Shown: piece after piece, positions 2,831 through 10,878 of the stretch
Layout of the letters: the number at the start of each line of letters is the position of its first letter
Position numbering within the stretch: position 1 is the stretch's first letter
From: Gammaproteobacteria bacterium
Lineage (GTDB): Bacteria > Pseudomonadota > Gammaproteobacteria > Natronospirales > JAJUFS01
Assembly: GCA_036381175.1 (NCBI GenBank)
Contig: DASVDI010000015.1
Coordinates: forward strand, 14,980-78,979
Reading direction: 5' to 3'
DNA length: 64,000 nt
Notes under the pieces: model-generated
Database searches by the model: none
What the model was told of the DNA's origin: nothing
Seen by the model: the letters and a program-made list of their open reading frames with translations, nothing else
Made by a program: the position numbers and the translations under genes

Positions 2831-3048
2831 CCGATCCCTCGAATAGATTGCGATTGATTGATGTTTCAAGAGATGTTTAGAGCCTTACGCTTTGAGCGTC
2901 ATGGTTGCGCAAGGCGTAAGACTTGACCCAAAATCTTCTTCGCGTTGTGTCCCCCTCTCGCGGCCCCCGATCCTACTTTCTTACGGCTTTGCTATGTTCA
3001 ATTCAAGGTCATGCACAGCTAAAAAGGGTACTGACCGCTTTTTTCCCC

Positions 3049-3162
3049 ATGGAACTCATTCGCGACACAAACCCAGGAAAGTCCAAGCGGGTGATGGACG
3101 CAATGATGAAGATGGTGAAACTCGACGTCGCGGAATTGGAGAGAGCATACAAAGACGCATAA
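3049..3162 (+). pseudogene. 3' remnant of a VOC/PhnB-like (3-demethylubiquinone-9 3-methyltransferase-like) gene
   Basis: PGKSKRVMDAMMKMVKLDVAELERAY resembles the C-terminal helix of this family; no upstream part of the gene in frame. Confidence 0.55.
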
Positions 3163-3233
3163 GATACGACACGCAAGAAAGCCTTACCAAACGCCGCTGC
3201 GATTTTGGGGCGTGACAGAGCCGGAGAAACACG

Positions 3234-3953
3234 ATGAAAAAGATTCGTACTTTTACAGAACTCCATGATGTTTTCGGAAGCTACCGAAAGGACAACAGAT
3301 GGATGTTTAGAGGAGAAGCGAACTCAAGGTGGAAGACAATTCCAAAAGCTGGTCGCACCCCGTACTCGGCTCGAAATGACCTTGAATATTTAGAGGCGTG
3401 GAAACGAAAGGCTGTTGAGTTCATAGCAAGCGCTCCAAAGGACGATTGGGAGTGGCTGGCGCTCGCTCAACATCATGGACTTCCAACGCGCCTTCTCGAC
3501 TGGACGTACAACCCGCTGGTGGCCGCGTATTTTTCATGCTGTGGAGAACAAGAGCACGACGGCGTGCTGTTTTGCTATAGACCACAATGGACTGCTGTTA
3601 CAGATGCCACATCACCAAAAAACCTAACGAGAGTAGTGAAATTCAAACCACGCGTCGTAGCGCAACGTATTGGCCGTCAAAGCGGCTTATTTACAGTTCA
3701 CCCAGATCCGAAATGCGAATTACAGGACAGTCTTGACGACGAAGACACGCTAGACATTTATTTGTTAGATAAAAAGTATAAAAAGCAGCTTCTATTTGAA
3801 CTGAGCCACTATGGAATCAATGCCGCCACATTAATGGGTGACTTGGACGGGTTATCCGCCCATATGCGCTGGTCGTTGGAGAACCGTAGTTTCTGGGTCA
3901 ACGGCGACGCTCTATCGCTTGACGTTGAAATGGAATCGCCTCCTTTAACATGA
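3234..3953 (+). CDS. FRG domain protein
   Basis: MFRGE motif and [27 protein letters not shown] signature; GGAG RBS; AT-rich composition. Confidence 0.88.
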
Positions 3954-4013
3954 AACAACGCCACCTAGATTGGGCATCGGAATTACCTTCAAGCAAATCA
4001 AAAGGAAAGCCTC

Positions 4014-4775
4014 ATGTCATTTAAGAGTTGGCGAGCCTTCCGAGAATTCGAGCATCACGTGAAAACAGAATTCCGTTTTTCCTTAAATCCAGAGTCTAAA
4101 GAATTCTTAGCGGAACTCGCTCGTACCAGCTCATCTAGAGAAAAACTGATTAAAAAGGGAAGCTTCCTATGGCGAGCACAACTCGGCCATGGCTGGCATA
4201 CGGAAGATCACGGAGAACTGGAGTTAGAAGTTCCAGGCCCATATAGCGCGGAAAGAATGAAGCCGGTGCTGAGAAGAGCTAAAGAAGGCCGGGTAAATCC
4301 AAAAGGAATTCCGTTCTTATACTTGTCGACCGACAGAGATACCGCTATGAGTGAAACCCGACCGTGGATGGGAGAAACTGTCTCGGTTGCTCAGTTCGAA
4401 GTAAATAACGACATCGAGGTAATCGATTTTTCACAGGACGCCGAAATCAAAAGTATCCTCGAATGGTACTTCGAAGAACCCGACGAAGATGTACGAGAGC
4501 AATCTATATGGGCTCAAATTAACCATGCGTTTTCAACCCCAATAACCGTAAGCGATAACAGCGCCGACTACGTCGTTACTCAGCTTATTGCCGAAGTTTT
4601 CAGAGCCAAAGGGTTTAAAGGGATTGCTTATCGATCAAGCTTAGGAGAAGGAACGAACGTGGCCTTGTTCGACCTTTCTTCGGCCGACCCCGTTAACTGT
4701 TTTTTGTATGAGGCTAGAGACATTCGATTCGAATTCAGCGAAGCCGCGAATCCATGGTTTTTGGCGAAGAGTTGA
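4014..4775 (+). CDS. RES domain protein (NAD+ phosphorylase / ART-like family)
   Basis: LWRAQ (R), GRVNPKGIPFLYLS, TAMSETRP (E), GIAYRSS (S). Confidence 0.88.
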   Translation: MSFKSWRAFREFEHHVKTEFRFSLNPESKEFLAELARTSSSREKLIKKGSFLWRAQLGHGWHTEDHGELELEVPGPYSAERMKPVLRRAKEGRVNPKGIPFLYLSTDRDTAMSETRPWMGETVSVAQFEVNNDIEVIDFSQDAEIKSILEWYFEEPDEDVREQSIWAQINHAFSTPITVSDNSADYVVTQLIAEVFRAKGFKGIAYRSSLGEGTNVALFDLSSADPVNCFLYEARDIRFEFSEAANPWFLAKS

Positions 4776-4818
4776 TAACAATCGGCCCGTCCTTACTAAT
4801 CAATTGTATAGCGAAGAT

Positions 4819-6036
4819 TTATTGAGTCGATCGCATTCCAGCCAGCCATTCGAGAAGCCTTTCGAACCATACAACTCGCGTGTATTCCAGATAAAGATTA
4901 AACGCCATAAAAAACACGAATATCACAACGGCCGCGACGATCAAAAGCACAGCCAACTGCACCCGATACTTCGCCGTTAATTGTGAGTACGTGCCGGAAA
5001 CATGCTGTTCATCAAGTTTCTTCAGGTAATTGCACTTCAATTCATCTATATCCTCCTTAAGATGGCGGAGGGTCACATACTGAGCAGTAATCATCGTCAG
5101 CATAATTAAAGCGAATACTGCAGCACCAACCATAATAATATGATTTCTCATTCCACCATCGTCGACGAGCTGGCCAGCAATCAAGATATACGCCAACGGT
5201 ATAGCCAAAAGCTTGGCCGAAACATCGTGAAGCACCGCACCCAATCGTTTCGCTTGCTCTATTTTTTCCCTATCCAGATCTGCAACTAGCGATGAAAATG
5301 AAAAATCCTTCGCGTATAGCTCGTAATCCCTTCGATATCGCGCGTATATTTCATCAAGGCGGCACAGAATCACAGCGAGTCGTTCACTTTCCGGGAATGC
5401 TTCAGCGACTTCGATCACCTTCCCTATAAATATTTCTCGACGACGCTCTGCGTGCGCATCGGAGTCGACTGGAAATAGTTCGGCACAAATTTCATTGACC
5501 CTTTCAAGCTGGGATCTGCTCAACTCACTCCGTGAAATCCTCAGATCAACATCCACTCGGTTTCGGTTTAAAAAACACAACCGAGGACCCAAATCAACTG
5601 TCGAGAGCGTTTCAAGGACACCCACGATCTTCGTCAGTAACAAATACTTCTCGATCAACTCGGAAGAACTCTTCGGATATTCGATATCTTCGTGAACCAG
5701 GTAAAAACTGTCAGGCGCTTTTTTATAAAGATCGGGGCTTCGCAGCAATCCATCAATATCGGAAAAAATATAACCACCATACTGCTGCCCACTCGGAATT
5801 TTGATCTCGTATTCAACAACGTCTCTACACGTTGAGATGCCCTGACTCGAAAGAGCCTTTCCGTTCTCCACTACGTCGATTACGAATTGCGCATTGTATA
5901 GCGCAGCAAGTACACCGCTCGTGGTTTCATCCAACTCAATAGACCCAATCAAGACGCCGTCATTAAGCTGTACGTGCGTCGATTTACGGCACACTTCAAT
6001 AGCGGCGTGAAACAGGTCGGATGCAGCGGCGTTCAT
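4819..6036 (-). CDS. Unknown protein, soluble N-terminal region plus about three C-terminal hydrophobic helices
   Basis: 405 aa ORF; hydrophobic runs LLAIPLAYILIAG, IIMVGAAVFALIMLTMITA, LAVLLIVAAVVIFVFFMAF; ATGA overlap with the upstream gene. Confidence 0.8.
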   Translation of the reverse strand: MNAAASDLFHAAIEVCRKSTHVQLNDGVLIGSIELDETTSGVLAALYNAQFVIDVVENGKALSSQGISTCRDVVEYEIKIPSGQQYGGYIFSDIDGLLRSPDLYKKAPDSFYLVHEDIEYPKSSSELIEKYLLLTKIVGVLETLSTVDLGPRLCFLNRNRVDVDLRISRSELSRSQLERVNEICAELFPVDSDAHAERRREIFIGKVIEVAEAFPESERLAVILCRLDEIYARYRRDYELYAKDFSFSSLVADLDREKIEQAKRLGAVLHDVSAKLLAIPLAYILIAGQLVDDGGMRNHIIMVGAAVFALIMLTMITAQYVTLRHLKEDIDELKCNYLKKLDEQHVSGTYSQLTAKYRVQLAVLLIVAAVVIFVFFMAFNLYLEYTRVVWFERLLEWLAGMRSTQ

Positions 6037-7031
6037 TTTATTGCTTCTATTTCGTTTTTAAGTGTTTCTGGAATATTTCGAATAACAAGACTTCCATCTT
6101 TAAGTGCGACATTGTCACGAACGTACTGCGCGGACATTCGTATCGAAAACTTTCCTTCTTGGAAATTGACTCCAATCAGACGAGAAAGGCTAGCTTTTTC
6201 CACATGAAAGTACGCGTTCATTGCGTACGTCTCTTGCGCGGCGAAATGCTGAAAAATTTCTGGGTCATCTTCGAAGAGTCGCGTCGCGATGGCAGCAACC
6301 GATGCTTCTTTCTTGTTTTTCGCACACTCTAGTAGATATTCTGCGACTGTTTCTCGAGCTTTATGTTTTTGTTCGCCTTTCCAGCCGTTCTCTCGGATGA
6401 AGTCGTTCACGATGTTTATTATTTTTTCAGTCGATTCCTTCGGCTTTGTTAGAGCGGTACAGCCAATAAAGTCCACGAAGTACTCAGACACCTCTCTCTT
6501 ACCGCGTACAAAACTGACGTATTTATGTTCTTCGCCGTCATTCTTGACCTGCAGCCACTTAGTGACATTTATACGAGCAGCGACGTATAGCTTGCTGAGG
6601 TCGAGATGCAGGGTGTCTTTCAGTTTTAGGTCGCTGGTTACCGACGCGCCCACTTTGTCGTTCAGCATTAAGACAAATAGGAAATCTTGATCAGCTTCGC
6701 TGTATCTCAGAAATAGCACGTATCCACCAGCCGATGCCTGCTTCTGACGCATTCTATCTTCCAAGTGCTCCATCGCCTTCGTGGAGAAACCCATAAAATC
6801 TTGCCACTCGGCCTGAACGCACTTTTCGAGAATTTTTTGAAACCAATAGACATCGCTGTTTTCACGAAACAATCCGTAAACAGCAGACCCTCCATAGATT
6901 TTTCGAACCTCACCACCAACTCTCGCCACCGTGTCGTTCAATGGCAAAAGGCCTGGCGCGAGAGTTACCGCTATGTCGGTGCTTGCGGCCTCTTTGGCGA
7001 TTTGGTGGATGACAGCAGCTTTAACTTCCAT
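6033..7031 (-). CDS. Nucleoid-associated protein, NdpA/YejK (NA-37)-like, divergent accessory copy
   Basis: VIHQIAKE N-terminus, ASAGGYVLFLRY, HLDLSKLYVAARINVTKW, YVSFVRGK..VSEYFVDFIGC match the YejK family pattern; 332 aa; GGAG RBS. Confidence 0.82.
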   Translation of the reverse strand: MEVKAAVIHQIAKEAASTDIAVTLAPGLLPLNDTVARVGGEVRKIYGGSAVYGLFRENSDVYWFQKILEKCVQAEWQDFMGFSTKAMEHLEDRMRQKQASAGGYVLFLRYSEADQDFLFVLMLNDKVGASVTSDLKLKDTLHLDLSKLYVAARINVTKWLQVKNDGEEHKYVSFVRGKREVSEYFVDFIGCTALTKPKESTEKIINIVNDFIRENGWKGEQKHKARETVAEYLLECAKNKKEASVAAIATRLFEDDPEIFQHFAAQETYAMNAYFHVEKASLSRLIGVNFQEGKFSIRMSAQYVRDNVALKDGSLVIRNIPETLKNEIEAIK

Positions 7032-7203
7032 TTCCAGAGTCTCCTTCGCGTCGAGGCCACGTTTAGAAATTGTGGCAACTTAACCCATTGTTGAGGTTAT
7101 GTCTTGTCAGCAAATGCTGATTCTGTTCGCAATTTCAGGGCTGTCCGGATAGCGGAAAATCGAGAAAAAGCTAGAGTTATCAGGCCTTTCGAGGCAACGG
7201 GGA

Positions 7204-7322
7204 TTGACGTCTTCGTGGAGCAAACTCCTTGTTAGTTAGCAGTTTGTCGGGCGTGGGCGAATACAAGACCCTTCGGGGGAATCAGCCCGCCGTGCTCCAC
7301 GGGACGTCAAACACCCGACATT
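7204..7322 (+). promoter_or_regulatory. Structured leader / putative cis-regulatory or antisense RNA upstream of a small ORF
   Basis: Interleaved inverted repeats 7204-7222/7293-7310 and 7245-7254/7311-7320; CCC-TTCG-GGG tetraloop at 7269-7278; TTGACG at 7204. Confidence 0.5.
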
Positions 7323-7353
7323 TATCAAAACCGACGTCATTTGGAGAATCAAC

Positions 7354-7692
7354 ATGAACAAGAAGGACACTTCCTACCGCATGCCGGAAGGTTTCAATCC
7401 GTTCTCTGCAATCGATGCAGCGCGAGGGCTCGCTGACGCGATCCACTGGATGCATTTCGACGGGCCAGGCGCTGAAGAAACGATGGAGTTCGGCGACAAG
7501 GTGTCGCTGGATGCGCTGGTGGAGATGCTGAGAACGCGCGTGCATGAGCTGCACGATTACATTCACGAGATCAGCAACAGTACTTCACTGCACCTGCCGA
7601 TGAACGACGCCGATTTCGATGTCTTGCGCTATGGCGCTCCCAACGGCGGGGGGTTCATCCGCGAGGAATCACCGCTCTACGCAGTTCGATAA
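7354..7692 (+). CDS. Small hypothetical protein
   Basis: 112 aa ORF with GGAG RBS and a strong terminator after it; ends in IREESPLY. Confidence 0.7.
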   Translation: MNKKDTSYRMPEGFNPFSAIDAARGLADAIHWMHFDGPGAEETMEFGDKVSLDALVEMLRTRVHELHDYIHEISNSTSLHLPMNDADFDVLRYGAPNGGGFIREESPLYAVR

Positions 7693-7819: not shown

Positions 7820-8215
7820 GATGAAGAACTGTGCCGGAGCGACATTGAAATACTGACTGGCGACGATTGACCGCGAAGCAATCAAAGGTCTTCGCTTTTC
7901 GCTCTTGCTTTTGAACCCGTTGAGGCCACCGAGGAAGTGAAGACGAACGCGGGTACGGAGCAGGAACCGGAATCGCAATGAAGCGCAGCGAAATGAGAAT
8001 CCGCGGTTCCGTCGCGTAGTAACGAGGAGTGGCGAGTCCGAGGCGGGCCAAGCGAGTGCAACGAGCGAAGGCTTGACCGGCGAGTTGCCGAGTGACCCGT
8101 GTTCGTCGAACTCCGCAGGCTCCTTTGAATAAACAAGAGGCCGATCGGGAAAGCGTTTTTGGTTACTTGTGTCGCGACAAAAGTGACTCGCCCCCGCGCA
8201 GCGGGCGAAACCCTC
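7820..8215 (+). repeat. Long structured intergenic repeat, right copy
   Basis: Reverse complement aligns to 2430-2830; contains the hairpin at 8162-8187 and gggcgaaaccc; ends approximate. Confidence 0.8.
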
Positions 8216-8520
8216 TTCGAAAAGAAAAAGAAGTTGATGGCCGCGCCATTCTTCGCGGCAGGATGCCGCTCCCACACAGCTTCGATTGACACTCTCGCAA
8301 GAAAAAAGTGACCCGTGTTCGTCGAACTCCGCAGGCTCCTTAAATGAACAAGAGGCCGATCGGGAAAGCGGTTTTCTCCCCTTTTGACAAGACAAAAGGG
8401 GATCGCTCCGCGCAGCGGGCGAAACCCTCTTCGAAAGAAAAGGAAGTTGATGGTCGCGCCAATCTTCGCGGCAGGATGCCGCTCCCACATAACTTCGATT
8501 GACACTCTCGCCAGGAAAAA
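8092..8520 (+). repeat. Tandem direct repeat, two ~216 bp units (8092-8307, 8308-8520), each carrying a REP half-site
   Basis: Both units begin gtgacccgtgttcgtcgaactccgcaggctcctt and contain cttcgcggcaggatgccgctcccaca (8251-8276, 8464-8489). Confidence 0.92.
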
Positions 8521-8546
8521 TATGTTCCGCGTTCGTCTAGCTGCGC

Positions 8547-8773
8547 CGGCCAACTCGCCGGTATTTCGGCCACGAGATCGGCCAATTTGAAAACGAAATG
8601 TCATTTAAGGCCAATTAAAACAGTAATTTACGATTCTGCATCATCGGCCATTGCGCTTTGCTGGCGGCGGGTGCATGCTTGCGCGGATCGGCCAAAAAAT
8701 CGGCCAAATCGACGGTCTATCTTGTCTTAAACTTTTTTAAATCAATAGTTTATATTATCGGGGAATCGGCCAA
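8547..8773 (+). promoter_or_regulatory. Iterated (ATC)GGCCA(A) motifs upstream of the Fic gene
   Basis: Copies at 8547, 8566, 8577, 8608, 8643, 8687, 8699 and 8765, the last overlapping the ATG. Confidence 0.55.
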
Positions 8774-9969
8774 TGAGTCAGCCAGAAATGCCATCCCGTA
8801 TCGAACCCGCTCGCATCGAGCAGATCACCGAGCGGCTGGCGGACGCCATCGCCCGGCTGGTACGGCCCGCTTCGATCCTGGGTAACGCGCTGCATCCGCA
8901 CACGGCGGCGAGTCTCGCTGACGTCGTTCGCGTCATGAACACTTATTACAGCAATCTCATCGAGGGGCATGACACGCGCCCGCGCGACATCGAGCTGGCC
9001 CTGGCAGGGGAGCTGGATAACGAGAATGCGCGTCGCCGGAACCTGCAACTGGAAGCCGCTGCGCACGTACGGGTACAGCGCCTGATCGATGAACAGGCGA
9101 TGGCGGGTACCTTGCCGGAACCGGCGTCGTGCGAATTTCTGCGCTGGGTCCACCACGAGTTTTATCGTGATGCCCCCGAGGAATTGTTGATCGTTCATGG
9201 AGCGGGCCGCGAGTTTCGCATGCAGCCCGGCGAGTGGCGCAGTCGACCGGAACACGATAACGCTGTCGGCCGCCATCAGCCGCCTGCGAGCAAACGTGTT
9301 GACGATTTCATGCGCTATTTCGAGACGCGTTTCGCTTTCTCTGCGATGGGGGAGTCCGCAAGGATTCTTGCGATCGCTATCGCGCATCACCGTTTCAATT
9401 ACATCCATCCCTTTCCGGATGGTAACGGACGTGTAAGCCGCCTGATGAGTCACGCGATGGCGCACAAGGCCGGCGTGGGAGCGCACGGGCTGTGGTCGGT
9501 ATCGCGCGGTCTTGCACGCGGTTTGGCCAGTCGCACCGAGTACAAGGCGAACATGGATCTGGCAGATTCGCCGCGCCATGATGATCTCGACGGGCGAGGA
9601 AATCTTTCTCTCGCTGATCTCAACATGTTCGTGGAATGGTTTCTCGACGTGTGTATCGACCAGGTTACGTTCATGGCGGAGATGTTCGATCTCGACGGGC
9701 TCCGGAATCGTTTTGAAAGACTTGTTCATGCGCTGGACTTCAAGCCGGAGTCGAAATACCTGCTCGAAGCGGCGCTTCTGCAGGGTGAGTTCGAGCGCGG
9801 TGAAGCATCCCGATTGACGGGTCTGCCGGAGCGTTCAGCACGTCGCGTGTTGAAGGATCTTGTTGATCGCGGCTTGCTGGGGTCGGATGGCGAAAAGCGA
9901 CCAGTTTCATTGAGGTTTCCGGCCGACTCCCTGGATTTGCTGTTTCCGAGACTCTATCCGTCGACCTGA
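8773..9969 (+). CDS. Fic family protein with C-terminal helix-turn-helix
   Basis: Canonical HPFPDGNGRVSR motif; SNLIEG intramolecular inhibitory motif; C-terminal ASRLTGLPERSARRVLKDL HTH-like segment. Confidence 0.93.
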   Translation: MSQPEMPSRIEPARIEQITERLADAIARLVRPASILGNALHPHTAASLADVVRVMNTYYSNLIEGHDTRPRDIELALAGELDNENARRRNLQLEAAAHVRVQRLIDEQAMAGTLPEPASCEFLRWVHHEFYRDAPEELLIVHGAGREFRMQPGEWRSRPEHDNAVGRHQPPASKRVDDFMRYFETRFAFSAMGESARILAIAIAHHRFNYIHPFPDGNGRVSRLMSHAMAHKAGVGAHGLWSVSRGLARGLASRTEYKANMDLADSPRHDDLDGRGNLSLADLNMFVEWFLDVCIDQVTFMAEMFDLDGLRNRFERLVHALDFKPESKYLLEAALLQGEFERGEASRLTGLPERSARRVLKDLVDRGLLGSDGEKRPVSLRFPADSLDLLFPRLYPST

Positions 9970-10801: not shown

Positions 10802-10878
10802 GGCTACGTAGCTCAGCTGGTTAGAGCGCGGCACTCATAATGCTGAGGTCGGTGGTTCGAGTCCACCCGTAGCCACCA
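10802..10878 (+). tRNA. tRNA-Met(CAT), elongator type
   Basis: GGCTACG/CGTAGCC acceptor stem, CTCATAA anticodon loop, GTTCGA T-loop, encoded CCA. Confidence 0.95.

Follow-up and report, generated by a model that had tools for sequence, protein, structure and literature searches.

What is a gene for a YejK-like nucleoid-associated protein (NAP) doing on a low-GC segment of a soil bacterial genome, overlapping the start of a gene for a membrane protein? The two genes, here P0001 and P0002, lie on the minus strand of a 64,000-nucleotide (nt) stretch of gammaproteobacterial DNA (assembly GCA_036381175.1, contig DASVDI010000015.1, positions 14,980 to 78,979), which we call the window and in whose numbering all coordinates are given. 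Our analysis suggests that the pair is a divergent, distant relative of the DS-1 and type II PANGU systems and not a new kind of system. At a probability of about 0.78, we read it as a two-gene anti-phage module of the abortive-infection type, of the DS-1 / type II PANGU kind, that reached the genome by horizontal transfer on a defence island of low GC. What leads to this reading is homology to the validated DS-1 system in both components, with the same gene order, similar sizes and the same effector architecture, together with strict linkage of the two genes, their co-divergence, their accessory status, their mobile carriers elsewhere and their defence-type neighbours.

DS-1 (DefensePredictor system D390; E. 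coli proteins WP_000355468.1 and WP_000150292.1) was cloned from E. coli, protects E. coli and was validated by phage challenge, and the same study lists the YejK domain with its newly validated defence domains (DeWeirdt et al., Science 2026, PMC13092281). Its first protein, DS-1A, has 391 amino acids (aa) and an N-terminal zinc ribbon, and the gene for the second, the 404-aa DS-1B, begins 2 nt later (PMC13092281 supplement). Type II PANGU is a bicistronic, defence-island-linked combination of a YejK-like NAP, Pag2A, and a transmembrane effector, Pag2B, whose acidic N-terminal 'DNA-mimicking' (DMK) domain binds Pag2A with a dissociation constant (KD) of 19 nM; defence requires both genes, the phenotype resembles abortive infection, and Pag2A leaves the nucleoid upon T4 infection (Li et al., bioRxiv 10.64898/2026.04.06.716658). 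The window pair is organized as follows.

4819-6036, minus strand: P0002, partner gene for a 405-aa protein, presumed effector in the membrane, corresponding to DS-1B / Pag2B
6033-7031, minus strand: P0001, NA37/YejK-family gene for a 332-aa protein, presumed sensor on the nucleoid, corresponding to DS-1A / Pag2A
6033-6036, minus strand: ATGA stop/start overlap, translational coupling, read from the sequence
7041-7046, minus strand: AAGGAG ribosome-binding site, 9 nt before the ATG of P0001, read from the sequence
5359-6036, minus strand: P0002 codons 1-226, acidic alpha/beta N-terminal domain in the AlphaFold2 (AF2) model, candidate NAP-binding 'DNA-mimic' module
5209-5358, minus strand: P0002 codons 227-276, 50-residue helix carrying the top conserved motif and running into the membrane part (AF2 and conservation)
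4891-5223, minus strand: P0002 codons 272-382, three hydrophobic helices, of which the second and third are separated by a helical hairpin (hydropathy and AF2)

As in DS-1, the gene for the NA37/YejK-domain protein comes first and that for the partner of about 400 aa follows on the same strand, and the sizes are similar. At the junction, GCA ATA AAA TGA ACG, the TGA of P0001 overlaps the ATG of P0002, so that a 4-nt overlap stands where DS-1 has a 2-nt gap; the hosts differ as well, E. coli in the one case and a soil metagenome-assembled genome (MAG) of 59.6% GC in the other. The initial annotation had reported the two open reading frames (ORFs) and their ATGA overlap, and these coordinates stand.

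Both window proteins match the NCBIfam models (June 2026 release) for the two DS-1 components, each below the equivalog cut-off. P0001 matches NF053868 (DS1_1_antiphage, 'nucleoid-associated anti-phage protein') with E = 1.1e-28 and 100.3 bits against a cut-off of 330, and is 27% identical to DS-1A over 161 residues (E = 2e-7). P0002 matches NF053869 (DS1_2_antiphage) over residues 88-347 with E = 3.7e-22 and 79 bits, below the cut-off of 315, and is 21% identical to DS-1B over 285 aa by BLASTP (E = 2e-9). The initial annotation had singled the pair out as an unnamed combination and the best candidate for a novel system, while allowing that a match to an already described system would undo this; the DS-1 matches are of that sort, and the claim of novelty therefore falls.

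Membership of P0001 in the NA37 family is clear, with the Pfam NA37 model matching residues 7-325 (E = 1.4e-61) and an end-to-end alignment to the E. coli YejK structure (E = 2.4e-29). YejK itself (NdpA; PDB 9be2; Schumacher et al., NAR 2024, PMC11229321) is of equal length and homologous over its full length, and part of the basic lining of its pore is common to P0001. DNA binding by YejK involves R173, R176 and K177 in the N-domain and R276, R280 and K284 in the C-domain (PMC11229321). By alignment, the equivalents in P0001 are K178, R179 and E180, and K279, S283 and G287, respectively, and further basic residues, R176 and R284, lie near the YejK pore positions. The N-domain basic patch R176-G-K178-R179 (R-G-K/R-R) is conserved across the window clade. 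On these sequence grounds, DNA binding by P0001 is plausible, although not assured.

P0002 matched no Pfam family at better than chance level, and a sequence-profile search of the PDB with it returned no match. Hydropathy marks hydrophobic segments at residues 272-291 (weak), 297-321 and 358-382. An AF2 model built from a 128-sequence alignment (pLDDT 95.1, pTM 0.81) begins with an alpha/beta domain (residues 1-225) and a long helix (227-276), which bears a conserved Y-x-L-Y-x-x-x-F-S motif. The invariant P280 lies in a short hydrophobic helix (278-288), after which come two long helices (296-340 and 343-385): their hydrophobic halves pair as a transmembrane hairpin, and a second hairpin, made of the polar halves, lies on the opposite side. 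A soluble N-terminal region followed by about three C-terminal transmembrane helices had been proposed from the sequence, and hydropathy and the model agree with that layout. The family's most conserved motif is the YRRDYELYAKDFSFSS stretch, in which Y238, F245 and S246 are nearly invariant. All invariant or near-invariant positions of the family are kept in P0002: G31, Y112, Y131, Y238, F245, S246 and P280, and in addition Q289, N298, Q319, L323 and Q360. Those classed as invariant (Y131, P280, N298 and L323) are among them, and the conserved polar residues Q289, N298, Q319 and Q360 sit at the ends of the membrane helices. Residues 1-265 carry a net charge of -13 (isoelectric point 4.9), and the N-terminal part is net-negative in 127 of the 128 family members. 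This acidic N-terminus fits the published 'DNA-mimic' description, the mimicry itself being putative. Foldseek searches of the PDB and BFVD with the AF2 model of P0002 gave nothing at E <= 1e-3. A likeness of P0002 to tripartite alpha-pore-forming toxins reached Foldseek probabilities of 0.06-0.08 only, which is no evidence, and was rejected.

The likeness to type II PANGU, an acidic N-domain joined to a C-terminal transmembrane effector, is drawn from the published description and not from Pag2 sequences. The window pair could also belong to a PANGU NAP-operon cluster other than 'Cluster 2', for example 'conserved hypothetical downstream of NAP'. Type I PANGU (Pag1A with the GRel toxSAS Pag1B) follows the same sensor logic, in that a NAP gene is coupled to an effector with an acidic NAP-binding domain, but Pag1B is a soluble alarmone synthetase rather than a membrane protein and has no similarity to P0002. 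The initial annotation had contrasted the pair with a housekeeping YejK thought to stand alone, a picture now outdated, as 47% of 1.6 million YejK-like genes lie in putative operons (bioRxiv 10.64898/2026.04.06.716658). It had also drawn an analogy to Kiwa (KwaA/KwaB). That likeness is general only, two genes that encode a membrane protein and a soluble protein acting on DNA; KwaA is a sensor whereas the window membrane protein is the presumed effector, and, as far as tested, their folds are unrelated. The PADLOC v2 (2023) models for Kiwa and for other systems of that date match neither protein, leaving the analogy without support from homology, and Kiwa and those other systems were rejected on this ground.

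How large is the family to which the partner belongs, and does it always travel with an NA37 gene? With HMMER, 1.84 billion representatives, clustered at 50% identity, were scanned in full; the P0002 family comprises 835 of these clusters when the limit is E <= 1e-3 and 482 when it is E <= 1e-10, and nearly all of the best 150 matches are about 370-460 aa long and aligned over most of their length. A word-indexed protein search, by comparison, recovered one relative with the single P0002 sequence and none further with a 40-sequence profile, and a search of loci with a 6-sequence alignment led to one locus, in Arenicella. NF053869 was matched by all 40 sampled family members (best E = 2.9e-36), so that DS-1B is one branch of a large superfamily. 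A 128-member family profile aligned to DS-1B with an hhalign probability of 99% (E = 2.6e-18); the aligned region runs from the C-terminal half of the soluble region through the conserved helix into the first transmembrane helices. The clade of P0002 within this superfamily is small and divergent: P0002 is 34-38% identical to the five representatives nearest to it and 17-26% identical to the others.

Ten other partner loci could be assessed: a Logan contig, an Arenicella MAG, three genomes of the host's phylum, four plasmid or replicon loci, and a phage. In all ten the gene just upstream, on the same strand, is an NA37 gene, which bears out the co-occurrence with NA37 genes that the initial annotation had proposed to check. 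The two genes overlap by 4-25 nt in nine of the ten, by 4 nt at L003, L012 and L015 and by 8-25 nt at the remaining six. The NA37 proteins and their partners covary in pairwise identity (Mantel r 0.875, a value reached by none of 5000 permutations). Because of this covariation and the linkage in every locus, we conclude that the NA37 gene and its partner have travelled as a unit. In each of the three host-phylum genomes with the pair, the linked NA37 gene is the sole NA37 gene. The tenth locus, from the host's phylum (L007/L009, G126:C15:41148-43324), has an internal TAA stop in the partner and an intact NA37 gene, and is likely to be a decaying copy of the system.

Several of these loci are on mobile elements. 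Plasmid-borne pairs occur in Methylobacter, Pseudomonas (pXWY) and Sphingomonas, and a further pair is on a Methylobacterium replicon filed as a plasmid; the temperate Sinorhizobium phage phi2LM21 also carries an NA37-partner pair. On the Methylobacter plasmid (L013, NZ_CP091425.1) and on Pseudomonas pXWY (L015), the pairs adjoin genes for AAA ATPases and helicases and insertion sequence elements, surroundings that are a defence-island-like context on plasmids. In the Arenicella MAG a TIR-domain gene lies near the pair.

Carriage by plasmids and a temperate phage would also suit an addiction or exclusion module, in which a membrane toxin restrained by the NA37 protein stabilizes the island, plasmid or prophage that bears it; the tight gene overlap resembles that of toxin-antitoxin pairs, and a membrane effector is plausibly toxic. 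In the PANGU systems that were tested, however, each gene was non-toxic by itself, and the NAP serves as an activator, with no antitoxin role (bioRxiv 10.64898/2026.04.06.716658). DS-1 was validated through phage challenge, and an NA37 gene that comes first and encodes a protein as large as 332 aa is unlike typical antitoxins. We regard an addiction module as very unlikely.

Is the pair instead part of the host's own chromosome biology? The host genome (2.8 Mb in 58 contigs, 93.7% complete, 59.6% GC) contains one NA37 gene, P0001 itself, and not the separate core yejK for which the initial annotation had proposed a check. Of 40 relatives drawn from its genus, family or order, none has an NA37 gene and none has a P0002 homolog; P0001 is the only gene of its kind in the genome, as a housekeeping yejK would be, but far from being syntenic in relatives it is absent from every one of the 40. 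In the phylum at large the partner is present in 5 of 401 sampled genomes (about 1%). GC content falls to 45-47% over positions of about 3000 to 7000, compared with 56-64% in the flanks, and that of the pair is about 14 points below the genome. We therefore take the pair, absent from 40 relatives and with a 14-point GC deficit, to be acquired cargo rather than a housekeeping yejK. The flanking alcohol dehydrogenase had no match at E <= 1e-50 in the five nearest relatives and hence offered no anchor for an empty site.

These data bear directly on the proposal that the pair serves chromosome organization or segregation, as a housekeeping nucleoid protein with its membrane tether and with no role in conflict. 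Its status as the only NA37 gene of the genome would agree with such a role, and so would an HMM (hidden Markov model) score closer to canonical YejK than to DS-1A; P0001 nevertheless scores 195 bits against a cut-off of 341 for the YejK equivalog model (NF001557), and, where a housekeeping YejK would be expected to be general to its lineage, it is cargo of a low-GC island in a lineage otherwise without an NA37 gene. A position within a defence island and the occurrence of the same pair on plasmids and a phage elsewhere also speak against it. For practical purposes the phyletic pattern excludes this role, and we give it hardly any weight.

If the pair works as DS-1 and type II PANGU are thought to, the following sequence of events can be proposed. 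P0001, judging by its homology and its partly retained basic pore residues, would sit on the chromosome as a DNA clamp. Degradation of the host DNA by an infecting phage would release it, a step demonstrated for PANGU systems tested in E. coli and extended here to the window pair. Freed P0001 could then bind the acidic N-terminal domain of the membrane-anchored P0002, as suggested by the acidity of that domain and by the parallel divergence of P0001-like and P0002-like proteins. Binding may in turn switch the three-helix membrane part so that the membrane is damaged and the infected cell stops, an outcome that we infer for the family as a whole. The initial annotation had pictured a repurposed nucleoid protein that senses or binds invading DNA and acts with a membrane sensor or pore-forming effector. 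Its two-gene logic of a NAP and a membrane module is that published for DS-1 and type II PANGU; the published model differs in what is sensed, proposing release upon degradation of the host chromosome and not binding to invading DNA.

The main alternative keeps the pair in the same family but changes its trigger. The NA37 protein might sense something other than degradation of the host chromosome, such as incoming DNA of a phage or plasmid, along the lines of the initial annotation, or a phage protein, and then activate its membrane partner. The window clade is only 21-27% identical to the tested systems and strictly keeps half of the YejK DNA-contact residues, which leaves room for such a change. 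In addition, PANGU does not stop T1 and T5, phages that degrade host DNA as well (bioRxiv 10.64898/2026.04.06.716658), and for this reason the trigger may be more specific than loss of DNA. Conservation of the R176-G-K178-R179 patch in the window clade and the clearly acidic N-domain of P0002 (-13), as in the DNA-mimic model, argue for the published trigger instead, and no data point to another ligand. We consider a changed trigger unlikely, though less so than an addiction module.

Several points weigh against assigning the pair to the DS-1 / type II PANGU kind. Its scores are far below the equivalog cut-offs (79 versus 315 and 100 versus 330 bits) and its partner is 21% identical to DS-1B, so that function is being transferred across a large distance. 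By HMM score, canonical YejK (195 bits) is a closer match to P0001 than DS-1A is (100 bits); P0001 is also missing the N-terminal zinc ribbon of DS-1A, and it strictly keeps three of the six YejK DNA-binding residues (K178, R179 and K279). PADLOC v2 had no match for P0001 and a chance-level, CorA-like match for P0002 (E = 0.039). For Pag2B, the mode of action 'remains to be determined' (bioRxiv 10.64898/2026.04.06.716658). Finally, the sole sequencing run that contains the whole stretch is a DNA run of a soil metagenome. With these points counted, the analysis as a whole still indicates that the pair is very probably a phage-defence module.

The island around the pair carries further genes of defence type, and the low GC and defence-type neighbours that had been noticed from the sequence are borne out by the GC values given above and by adjoining FRG, RES and SoFic-like Fic genes.

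3234-3953: FRG-domain gene (PADLOC PDC-S15, E = 5.6e-69)
4014-4775: RES-domain gene (Pfam, E = 1.6e-18)
8773-9969: gene for a Fic-domain protein of 398 aa (PADLOC SoFic, near full length, E = 7e-29)

The RES gene begins 60 nt after the FRG gene and is convergent with P0002 across a gap of 43 nt; its product is extended at the N-terminus by about 85 aa, and the gene has no Xre-type antitoxin gene next to it. The Fic gene sits between a set of repeats and YbjN/tRNA-Met (10802-10878).

Those repeats belong to a structured element of about 340 nt, inverted copies of which bracket the island at 2425-2780 and 7880-8200, the right-hand one being extended to 8555 by tandem units of about 214 nt. At least 10 copies with 72-95% identity are present in the 2.8-Mb genome (on contigs C54, C40, C46, C8, C58, C51, C1 and C32), and the element brackets or adjoins segments of 42-51% GC at no fewer than six other loci. 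Three such loci have strong PADLOC matches: one to PDC-M49A (E = 1.7e-284), one to an NsnA/PD-T4-2_A-like gene together with a type II methyltransferase, and one to an AriA/OLD-like ATPase. Possibly the repeat marks a family of sites for defence cargo. Two ORFs, 2362-2880 on the plus strand and 7882-8604 on the minus strand, are inside the dispersed, non-coding repeats, have no family matches and give arginine- and serine-rich translations, and are probably not genes. A second multi-copy element (7130-7620) lies within the 850-nt spacer upstream of the NA37 gene and has copies on contigs C51, C6, C8, C44, C4, C54 and C42. It contains a sub-threshold match to the Rfam family sRNA-Xcc1 at 7245-7328 on the plus strand (43.7 bits against a gathering threshold of 53; E = 3.8e-5 to 2e-4). 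On C54, C8 and C42, but not on C6 or C4, it likewise stands directly before low-GC genes whose transcription runs away from it. An interpretation of the island in terms of integron cassettes, prompted by the sRNA-Xcc1 match, was set aside on account of there being a single such match in the window and of the mixed orientations of the genes.

These repeats invite another, rather improbable interpretation, in which the pair is cargo of an undescribed repeat-bounded site of defence exchange that is integron-like and has no recognised integrase. Within the same interpretation, the window clade, which joins a canonical-looking YejK to the effector in hosts without a resident YejK, could also be a separate type of PANGU, one in which the cargo NAP is the only NA37 protein of the cell.

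Taken by itself, the locus is an ordinary find. For work on these systems, the pLDDT 95 model and the invariant residues of the partner supply targets for mutagenesis (Y131, Y238, F245, S246, P280, Q289, N298, Q319, L323 and Q360). DS-1 and type II PANGU are very recent, and the window locus shows that the effector family is large, with 835 clusters at 50% identity, and that the effector is coupled to an NA37 gene in every locus examined. Since the pair reaches soil bacteria of a lineage without a YejK of its own, the sensor needs no resident paralog.

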